DNA of 45,044 nt. Source: a virus. Taxonomy: Duplodnaviria > Heunggongvirae > Uroviricota > Caudoviricetes. Both the position numbers and the translations under genes were made by a program. Of this stretch, positions 19,855 to 22,020 are shown piece by piece. The stretch lies in the IMG/VR virus record IMGVR_UViG_2718217859_000007; one strand, written 5' to 3'. The notes beneath the pieces were generated by a model. That model searched no databases, had not been told where the DNA came from, and worked only from the letters and a program-made list of their open reading frames with translations. Positions within the stretch are counted from its first letter, which is position 1. Every line of letters starts with the position of its first letter.

Positions 19855-20063
19855 AGTCCCACTCCTGCCGGACCACGGCGGCGTCCGGACACGCCAAGCG
19901 CACTTTCCATCTCTTCAATATATTGCCGCAGTTCACCGATTGTTGCCCGCGAATACTGGACCTGTCTGCCATCCTTGCTGACGGAAACCACAGCGCGTCC
20001 GATCATCAGTTCATGTAACGCCATGCGGGCATCGCAAAGCATCTCATGCGTATAAATCATCAC
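19851..20063 (-). CDS. head-tail joining protein (lambda gpW-like)
   Basis: 70 aa; ALHELMIG..V..DGR.V....IGEL..YIEE..RRRGPAG resembles lambda W. Confidence 0.85.
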   Translation of the reverse strand: MMIYTHEMLCDARMALHELMIGRAVVSVSKDGRQVQYSRATIGELRQYIEEMESALGVSGRRRGPAGVGL

Positions 20064-20524
20064 TATCCTCCACTCAGTGCAGCCGCGATTTCTTCCAGAC
20101 TCATCTCATCGTCGTCCTGCTCATCTCTTCTGGCACGGGCCAGTGCTTCAAGATCCAGCTGCCACCGCTGAACTGAAATACGCAGGGCAGCATAGGCATA
20201 TACCAGGCAGTCGAGGGCTTCGTTGCGTCGCCCTTTTTTATCCCACAGCAGTTTCACCCTGCCATTAACCACCTTCTCCACCAGCTCTTCCGCCACGATC
20301 TGACGCGCCTCTTCTTCCGAAAAAATGTCGGGGTTATCCGGAAAACGGAAGGTATACGGGGCAGCTTCACTGGCAGAGACCACTGGCAGGGCAAAACGGG
20401 CGTACAGCATTTCCTTGACGGTATCGGAGCCCACCTCACACAAAAACACACCACGCTGGTTGCGCTTTTTGGGCATGGTGATCACCGGCTTGCCGTACAC
20501 CGATGCCCCTTTTATGGGAAGCAC
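20063..20524 (-). CDS. terminase large subunit (lambda gpA-like), C-terminal fragment after frameshift
   Basis: Begins [12 protein letters not shown], matching the internal lambda A segment [12 protein letters not shown]; continues to the A-like C-terminus; separated from the N-terminal ORF by a frame change. Confidence 0.8.
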   Translation of the reverse strand: MLPIKGASVYGKPVITMPKKRNQRGVFLCEVGSDTVKEMLYARFALPVVSASEAAPYTFRFPDNPDIFSEEEARQIVAEELVEKVVNGRVKLLWDKKGRRNEALDCLVYAYAALRISVQRWQLDLEALARARRDEQDDDEMSLEEIAAALSGG

Positions 20525-22020
20525 AAAAAAGTGCCGTGTTTCCTGGAACGCTGATACACAATGTCCTGGTCGATACCACCGGTATCCCAGCAGACACGGG
20601 AAATGGAAATTTCAGTACCGTCAGCATGGCGGTATTTTTTCCGGATCACCGCATCAACACGTTTAAGGGTGTCCTCGTCTTCCGGTCGCCCCATGATAAT
20701 TTGCTTATCAATCAGAAAAGCTTCTTCGCCAGGCGCCCAGCCCCAGACATAAATTTCGTAGCGATCTTTCTGGGAGTCGATCCCGGCGGTCAGGTAAACC
20801 ACCCGCAGGGGAACCTGCGCGCCATAGTGGCAGACTTTTTCCAGCAACAACTCAAAGCTCAGTTTTTCTGCCACGGCCTCTTCATAGGGCTCCCCGAGCG
20901 TGGTGTTAATAAACGTCTTGACACCGTTCGGATCCTTCAGTGCATCCAGCCAGTCATAAACAATCTGTACCCAGGTGGTGAACGGGCTGTACGCCGTCCA
21001 GATATGGAAAGTGACGGAGCGCGGTGGCGGCATCTCCTCATCACCGGCGCTGTAAAATGCCAGGCCGTCGCGCGTCCACATCCCGGTATTGTCACAAATC
21101 CAGCGCCCGTCGGTCTGATCAAGTTCCGACTGGCGGATCACACAGCCATTATGTTCACACAGGTAATACACCGTTTCCGGTTTACCCTTCTCCCATTTCA
21201 GGCCAGACGGCGTCGCATCATCGCCAAACTTCAGATACTGAGCCTCCCCGCAATGAGGGCAAGGGACATAAAACCGCATGAAATGCGCAGATTCATTCGC
21301 GGCTTTCTCAATCTGGCAGGAGCCTTTAATTTTCGGCGTTGAGCCACGTATGGATTTAGGCCATACCGAGCCTTCGATACGTTTATCGCCAAGCAGCGTC
21401 GGCGAGCCTTCTTTTTCCACATCCGGTTCAAACGAGGAGAGTTCGTCATAGCAGACCACATCCACAGATTTTTCACGGTAGTTTTTAGCTGCGGCACCGC
21501 CCAGGCACCAGAACCCCACACCGGAGGAAAAACGCTTCAGAGTGAGCGTGTTGTCACGATGTTTTCTTCCGAACCATGGAGCCAGCTCCAGCAATGCAGG
21601 GACATCCCTGATCGTTGGCTCAACATGAGATTTCATGAAATCTTCTGCCGCAGAATCTGTTGGCTGAAAAAGCAGACTGTTACGGGATTTATGCTCAATA
21701 AAATAAGCCTCCACCCCCAACAGCATTTTAGTGTAACCAACGCGCGCCGATTTAATCAGATTAACGGTGCGGATCCGGTCATTTCCCATGCTGTTCATAA
21801 TGGCAACCTGAAACGGCAGGGTTTCCCATTGTCCGGGAGTGTATGAAGATTCTTTCGGCAGATAATAATGTTGATCAGCCCACTGAACCGTCGTCAGTGG
21901 AACCGGAATATTGAGAGATAAAAGCCCTGTAGCTATCGCACCGGCTGCATTAGCTGCCTTCTGTGCGTCTGAAATCATCAATCCACCTGCCCACGTTTTC
22001 ACCGGCTTTAGCTGCAACAT
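20512..22020 (-). CDS. terminase large subunit (lambda gpA-like), N-terminal fragment
   Basis: 502 aa ending ..[10 protein letters not shown], where lambda A continues HGLFRVIPIKG; ends 12 nt past the homopolymer. Confidence 0.85.

Follow-up and report, generated by a model that had tools for sequence, protein, structure and literature searches.

Packaging genes of a lambda-head/P2-tail prophage

The window, by which we mean the whole stretch of 45,044 nucleotides analysed here, is a 45-kb prophage bounded on the left by a tail-fibre accessory gene and on the right by an integrase gene, the stop codon of which ends on the last base. Relatives carry this prophage at the ompW-yciE locus of E. 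coli. In its late region (positions 1-22500), a lambda-like packaging and head module comprising nu1, A, W, portal, S49 protease, decoration protein, major capsid protein and FI is joined to a P2-like contractile tail module with baseplate V/W/J/I, sheath, tube and a gpD-like protein. Relatives of the prophage were also seen to carry subtilase cytotoxin or Shiga toxin cargo.

The packaging genes are arranged as expected for the gpA family, with cos and nu1 before the large terminase gene, terL, and W and portal after it. Alignment to the lambda and phage 21 left ends revealed a cos-like region (22640..22690, minus strand) approximately 180 nt upstream of nu1, in which GGTCGGTAGACG aligns to the lambda/phage 21 cosN GGGCGGCGACCT and is followed by the invariant CTATTTATGAAAATTTT. 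This region is identical in two sister copies of the prophage (L023 and L031). [quoted passage not shown] Next come terL itself (20063..21978, minus strand), which resembles lambda gene A, the gpW gene (19851-20063) and the portal gene (18283-19854). The late-gene ORFs other than terL match the lengths annotated in relatives. A promoter and terminator scan of positions 19800-22800 gave nothing above chance.

Split site, reading frames and domains of the large terminase

The coding strand of terL is the minus strand, and the plus strand at positions 20515-20540 reads TGGGAAGCACAAAAAAGTGCCGTGTT. The initial annotation had located a split of the gene at an A6 homopolymer at 20525-20530, i.e. T6 on the coding (minus) strand, and both the sequence and the ends of the ORFs bear this out. 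This run is the site of a 1-nt deletion. The ancestral codons are ACT TTT TTT GTG, for T F F V, with a run of seven Ts (T7). In the window, the 5' reading frame (20512..21978, minus strand) encodes a 488-aa product made of 484 native residues followed by LCFP, and it ends at a premature TAA (20514-20512, minus strand) that lies in the shifted frame, 9 nt past the T6G heptamer. The formal 5' ORF is longer (20512..22020, minus strand), as it reaches an ATG at 22020. As for the 3' reading frame (20063..20524, minus strand), it corresponds to a formal ORF of 153 aa that opens with GTG and shares a 13-nt overlap with the 5' ORF. Nothing was on record for this formal 153-aa ORF when it was looked up; the 3' product of gene callers, present on several contigs, is a 145-aa version that starts from a GTG at 20500.

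Run lengths of T5, T6 and T7 were simulated, and T7 alone gave a single open frame; with T5, the frame stays broken. The idea that a 1-nt indel would restore the gene is thus right in that one nucleotide suffices, but it has to be an insertion, the reversal of the deletion. Similarly, of the two run lengths initially expected to yield a continuous ORF, A7 (T7) does so and A5 (T5) does not. The comparison of the junction with lambda A was sound, as seen when lambda gpA and the restored protein were compared over 19 residues.

If T7 is present, terL encodes 638 aa, not the ~655 aa first proposed for the intact protein. Relatives annotate a 1917-nt CDS of 638 aa, which starts 42 nt inside the formal ORF of the window. 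This homologue-supported start is the ATG at 21978, with a Shine-Dalgarno-like AGGTGG motif upstream and the 29-nt overlap with nu1, and no ribosome-binding motif was found upstream of the ATG at 22020. The identity of the product as a gpA-like large terminase subunit holds, since both the GpA_ATPase and GpA_nuclease Pfam profiles score far above their cut-offs, and the T7 sister protein shares 66% identity and 79% positives with lambda gpA over 625 aa. A PDB sequence search with the intact protein found no match.

The two domains are affected differently by the frameshift. GpA_ATPase (PF05876) covers residues 46-293 of the restored protein (186.7 bits for a cut-off of 25.6) and is kept in the 488-aa fragment. 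GpA_nuclease (PF20454) covers residues 322-602 (230.8 bits, profile positions 2-287). In the window, this profile of 294 positions is cut, with positions 2-165 in the N-terminal ORF and 171-287 in the C-terminal ORF, in different frames. The 488-aa product holds about the first half of the nuclease domain, including the acidic AGIDSQ motif. An 11-residue motif, the RRNEALDC motif and the C-terminal tail are encoded in the other frame and are therefore absent from it. As the gene descends from the gpA family but no longer encodes a contiguous nuclease domain, we call it a gpA-family pseudogene.

The two ORFs could also be regarded as encoding a split, functional terminase, in which the 488-aa N-terminal fragment works with a 145-aa C-terminal fragment whose translation is reinitiated at GTG 20500. 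This GTG is located 11 nt past the stop codon with AAGGGG 5 nt upstream, and the 145-aa ORF is indeed predicted by gene callers. Nevertheless, the cut falls inside the nuclease fold (profile positions 165/171) and removes the FVLPIKGAS segment, which is conserved with lambda. In addition, homologues are never naturally split at this position, where they have a single frame with T7 (75 genomes, 115 contigs and 20 IMG/VR contigs), and other split copies represent independent lesions. We thus attribute a practically negligible probability to a two-piece enzyme and treat the 488-aa product as a truncated terminase.

Status and origin of the six-T allele

The comparison with orthologous prophage copies suggested in the initial annotation shows that copies with an identical background carry T7 and an intact terL. 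Four contigs retrieved by looking up the window's own portal protein (L019, L020, L023 and L024) differ from the window by one extra T alone over positions 18204-22678, from nu1 through terL and W to portal. Another copy (L031; GCA_012629565.1, contig AASXTN010000026.1) is 99.95% identical over 20.6 kb and also has T7. As these prophage copies match the window base for base except for the T7, we conclude that T7 is ancestral and T6 recent.

T7 is also the norm more widely. The intact 638-aa sister protein (e.g. EEU3141029.1) is found on 115 contigs, all named E. coli, and in the same protein background T6 occurs on 10 contigs. With a 70-nt junction query, this terL type was found in 75 complete E. 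coli genomes, and the matches listed are all T7, spanning 71 nt. The T6 junction query gave no match at 100% in those 75 genomes. Many E. coli genomes contain this terL type more than once, with up to five matching places per genome. A gapped-pattern search of IMG/VR yielded 20 matching contigs, 20/20 with T7 and none with T6. Finally, the exact T6 41-mer had 0 matches in each of the GTDB species-representative genomes, IMG/VR and the JGI metagenomes. These empty 41-mer scans indicate that T6 is rare, and they are uninformative as to whether it is real.

The reality of T6 was addressed at the level of reads, as had also been suggested, by using assemblies of independent read sets, and the allele was reproduced in at least ten of them. 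The exact 488-aa product occurs on at least 10 contigs, all of them Logan assemblies from different SRA runs; it is recorded only from Logan. T6 is present in every contig that was retrieved (L007-L010 and L016), and their identity to the window is 99.83-100%. One of them (L007) shows 0 differences from the window over positions 18204-22700, and another (L016) shows 0 differences over 2795 nt. The Logan runs could include the window's own strain; even so, the presence of T6 in reads would be validated.

A homopolymer error of sequencing or assembly, in a strain that truly has T7 and an intact terminase, nevertheless deserves consideration. Homopolymer miscalls are common in long-read assemblies, and two public T6 sequences come from assemblies that contain 25 and 10 such indels, T6 included. 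The window itself has a private patch of five changes at 23348-23375, including an extra G at 23356, which could be a local assembly error; its assembly is thus not demonstrably flawless. In addition, T6 is absent from the complete RefSeq E. coli genomes among the matches listed. However, T6 recurs across at least 10 read sets, each assembled independently, whose sequences otherwise match the window at 99.8-100% identity, and their clean, multi-kb contigs imply that the reads were accurate. Furthermore, the 22-kb late region of the window has no further coding homopolymer indel: when positions 1-22500 were compared with RM9088 and OkiPb01676, the T-run was the sole uncompensated coding indel, and the remaining single-base differences are intergenic or correspond to defects in those relatives. 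Given the independent read sets, the presence of T7 in the same background, T7 as the norm and the clean assembly, a miscall specific to the window is very unlikely. Of the two readings initially offered, i.e. a packaging-defective prophage or a sequencing error, the second can thus be set aside and the mutation is real; as for the packaging defect, we infer it from the gene's structure.

Two T6 sequences were not accepted as independent support for the allele. One assembly (L012, GCA_974492455.1) has 25 deletions, mostly in homopolymers, over ~12.7 kb, and the other (L013, CP060102.1) has 10 such deletions over ~12.7 kb. As these assemblies are full of homopolymer deletions, some public T6 sequences are untrustworthy, and T6 in these two is probably a sequencing error.

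The combined evidence makes it highly probable that the large terminase gene of this E. coli prophage, which joins a lambda-like head to a P2-like tail, carries a genuine, recent and inherited T7-to-T6 deletion. Its most likely origin would be slipped-strand mispairing during replication at the longest homopolymer of terL. The intact gene contains one run of 7 (the T7), three runs of 6 and ten runs of 5. Other one-base deletions affect terL in relatives. In two contigs (L015 and L017), an A6-to-A5 change breaks the gene 110 nt upstream of the T-run. In STEC309 (NZ_CP041435.1), a G is lost from a G-run and the gene is annotated as 'frameshifted', and in a T7 copy of the window's own prophage (L035), GG has become G at the equivalent of position 20841 and the terL protein is unannotated. 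T6 itself is found on another haplotype, in a metagenome scaffold (L014) where the T7-to-T6 change is the sole indel in 4.9 kb; this haplotype is RM9088-like and, near the junction, shows 6-7 differences to the window per 250 nt. In two of the Logan contigs (L008 and L010), T6 is accompanied by three synonymous SNPs of the RM9088 type at 20363-20384; these contigs represent a second haplotype, or else a recombinant or a chimeric assembly. At least two or three haplotypes may have acquired T6. Replication slippage, which we infer as the mechanism, fits both the other one-base terL deletions in relatives and the occurrence of T6 on another haplotype. The terL subfamily is repeatedly struck at short homopolymers, a pattern that is the signature expected of slippage in a large gene unselected during dormancy.

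Recurrence at the same run might also be taken to indicate that the T-run is a selected, reversible ON/OFF switch, i.e. a phase-variable element controlling virion production. The occurrence of T6 and T7 in otherwise identical prophage copies, and of T6 on distinct haplotypes (that of the window, that of L008/L010 and that of L014), would agree with this. However, a 7-nt run is below the typical length of contingency tracts, and A6, G-runs and GG are broken as well, as expected for unselected slippage over a 1.9-kb target. The scarcity of T6 in the same protein background (10 contigs vs 115), and its absence among the matches listed in the 75 complete genomes, also argue against a switch, as does the host benefit, which is not obvious with the lysis genes remaining. 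We thus regard a selected switch as highly doubtful. A weaker version, in which the T7 run is a recurrent and possibly reversible hotspot that toggles virion production, and hence a low-grade phase switch and not a dead end, appears quite unlikely as well; under it, prophages with a dead terminase might stay transmissible through reversion or traces of -1 slippage on U_UUU_UUG.

Another way for the T6 allele to remain functional would be leaky or programmed recoding, in which ribosomal -1 slippage on U_UUU_UUG, or slippage of RNA polymerase, yields enough full-length TerL (..GTFLVLPIKG..) for viability. The T6G heptamer does fit the X_XXY_YYZ pattern in the 0 frame (ACU UUU UUG), a Shine-Dalgarno-like AGGA is located 10 nt upstream of it, so that traces of full-length protein are possible, and a -1 shift would bring translation back into the native frame at the cost of one F-to-L change. 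The persistence of T6 on at least two haplotypes would also be compatible with some residual function. Nevertheless, the two-frame T6 state is derived and in the minority, homologues being in frame with T7, and the IMG/VR viral contigs comprise 0 T6 for 20 T7. For transcriptional slippage, a T-run of 6 nt is short. No stimulatory RNA structure was found in the 100 nt downstream of the heptamer, where the minimum free energy has a z-score of -1.07 and 36/200 shuffles reach the same stability or better. Slippery heptamers that lack stimulators shift in E. coli at 2-10x the background of ~0.055%, and U_UU.G ranks with the weakest A-site motifs (PMC4066793). The expected -1 efficiency here would be ~0.5% or less, a trace at most. 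Recoding at a level sufficient for viability is thus very improbable, and we favour a true loss-of-frame mutation.

Expected consequences and known systems

In the T6 allele, the frame shifts after residue 484, LCFP is added and translation stops. The resulting 488-aa product keeps the Nu1-binding/ATPase part, whereas its RNase-H-like nuclease domain is retained for the first half only. We assume that several functional parts known from lambda gpA apply here: cos cleavage presumably requires D401, part of AGIDSQ, as well as the E586 region (RRNEALDC), nuclease/helicase function K497 of the P-loop-like motif (GASVYGK), and portal binding the C-terminal ~30 residues. As the truncated product does not hold all of these presumed parts, it should not be able to mature and package DNA, and it would be expected neither to cut cos nor to dock on the portal. 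Similarly, because the break is in the middle of the nuclease domain, the prophage should not be able to cut cos or package its DNA on its own. The other genes checked are open over the expected length, and we therefore expect excision, replication and lysis to persist, so that the prophage probably still excises, replicates and lyses its host, although filled heads should not form unaided. Packaging might be rescued by the terminase of a co-resident phage with matching cos/Nu1 specificity, or by reversion to T7. It is tempting to describe the T6 carrier as a newly 'grounded' prophage.

In kind, this is ordinary prophage decay and nothing new. Frameshifted morphogenesis or packaging genes are well known in E. 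coli prophages, with possible complementation by co-resident phages. The NCBI pipeline already labels sibling cases as 'frameshifted'. What is added here is the resolution between error and mutation, the T7-to-T6 polarity, with a recent change, and the repeated lesions at short homopolymers in this terL subfamily. In practice, terL of the window should be annotated as a true frameshifted pseudogene and not be 'fixed' as an assembly error, and the prophage, despite its near-complete look, should be scored as unable to package autonomously. For strain risk, helper phages may still mobilise a prophage that is intact apart from its dead terminase, as shown for prophages of O157 Sakai. The T6/T7 pair, whose members are one T apart, also offers a clean before-and-after view of the earliest step of prophage decay, in which homopolymers fail first.

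The closest well-known relatives of the gene are those of lambda and phage 21. Lambda gpA has the same two Pfam domains as the window's terL and 66% aa identity over 625 residues, and gene 2 of phage 21, encoding gp2, has ~81% nucleotide identity with terL. Both phages share the order nu1-A-W-portal-S49 protease-D-E-FI and a cos-like site upstream of nu1. They differ from the window in that its gene is interrupted by a -1 deletion, and neither has a T-run at the position of the junction, which reads GTGTTTTCCGGGTG in phage 21. The downstream tail module of the window is P2-like and contractile, unlike that of lambda. Another close comparison is the intact sister allele (L031, L019, L020, L023 and L024), with T7 and a 638-aa TerL and otherwise identical to the window over positions 18204-22678. 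As for the sibling terL pseudogenes (STEC309, L015, L017, L035 and L014), they belong to the same family and also result from single-base deletions in short homopolymers, but at other sites or on other haplotypes, and thus represent independent events, some of which may be assembly errors.

A precedent for the fate of such a prophage is found in O157 Sakai, where prophage Sp4 has no intact terminase and yet is packaged, probably by the terminase of Sp14 (PMC2669165, Asadulghani et al. 2009). Like the window, Sp4 is lambdoid, with a small lesion that kills the packaging enzyme while most other genes remain, although in its case the lesion is an IS insertion in nu1, whereas in the window a homopolymer frameshift affects the large subunit. 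In both, a co-resident phage with a near-identical cos may still bring about mobilisation. By analogy with Sp4 and Sp14, packaging in trans would be plausible for the prophage described here, given a partner of matching cos/Nu1 specificity.

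Terminase and cos variation within the prophage family

Loss of an intact terL, the lambda gpA-like gene for the terminase large subunit, is not confined to the window. Independent lesions disrupt terL of this prophage family in L002 (STEC309), L015, L017, L035 and L011 (UMNF18): a G-run deletion, a contraction of A6 to A5, the loss of one G from a GG pair, and a deletion at the 5' end. They point to repeated loss of the packaging function in this family, in a sample that is biased by the manner in which the loci were retrieved. Two public assemblies are unfit as support for frameshift alleles: relative to RM9088, L012 (GCA_974492455.1) and L013 (CP060102.1) carry 25 and 10 indels, respectively, mostly one-base homopolymer deletions, over about 12.7 kb of prophage. 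Many of their genes are fragmented by these deletions, and both are probably unpolished long-read assemblies.

The cos-like site also varies. The cosN-like 12-mer (22674-22685) reads GGTCGGTAGACG in the window, in its sister copy L031 and in the Logan contig L023, whereas RM9088 and the Logan contigs L019, L020 and L024 have GGACGGCAGACG, with substitutions at 22679 and 22683. The terminase genes are nonetheless identical between the two groups, which suggests that variation in cosN is tolerated or that recombination has taken place at cos itself.

A private patch and neighbouring genes

Within 28 nt (23348-23375, plus strand), the window harbours four substitutions and one extra G that are absent from 13 otherwise near-identical loci, including L007, the contig that shares its T6 run in terL. 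The patch frameshifts a small hypothetical ORF of 67 aa (23279-23482). Some of the changes raise the complementarity of a quasi-palindrome; the patch may have arisen by templated mutation or by conversion, or it may be an error of local assembly.

An opposite-strand 'moron' (23494-24075, plus strand) separates cos from the lysis genes; its 193-aa product weakly matches histidine phosphatases (His_Phos_1, E = 4.9e-6). Proteins identical to this product are very widespread: they occur in 242 index blocks and on a variety of lambdoid backbones.

On the minus strand, a 79-aa ORF (27438-27677; ..DLVADFFMGSGST..) looks like what is left of the C-terminal part of an N6/N4 DNA methyltransferase. The T7 sister L031 has the identical sequence here, with a gene call for an N6_N4_Mtase of 146 aa, and the equivalent region of L035, a T7 copy of the same prophage, has no gene call. 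This ORF is probably an older pseudogene common to the lineage.

Prophage architecture and cargo

The prophage is a hybrid in which a lambda-like cos-packaging and head module is joined to a P2-like contractile tail (window 1-22500; relatives L001 and L005). In relatives, it is inserted at the ompW-yciE locus. Downstream of the Q antiterminator region, the window carries phage-borne genes for tRNA-Gly(tcc) (27170-27244) and tRNA-Thr(tgt) (27248-27323), both on the minus strand, whereas its relatives have tRNA-Ile, Arg and Arg instead. In the stretch that separates the tRNAs from the lysis genes, relatives harbour subtilase cytotoxin (subAB-like) genes and UMNF18 harbours Stx2e-like RIP/SLT_beta genes; the cargo of the window at this position is different.
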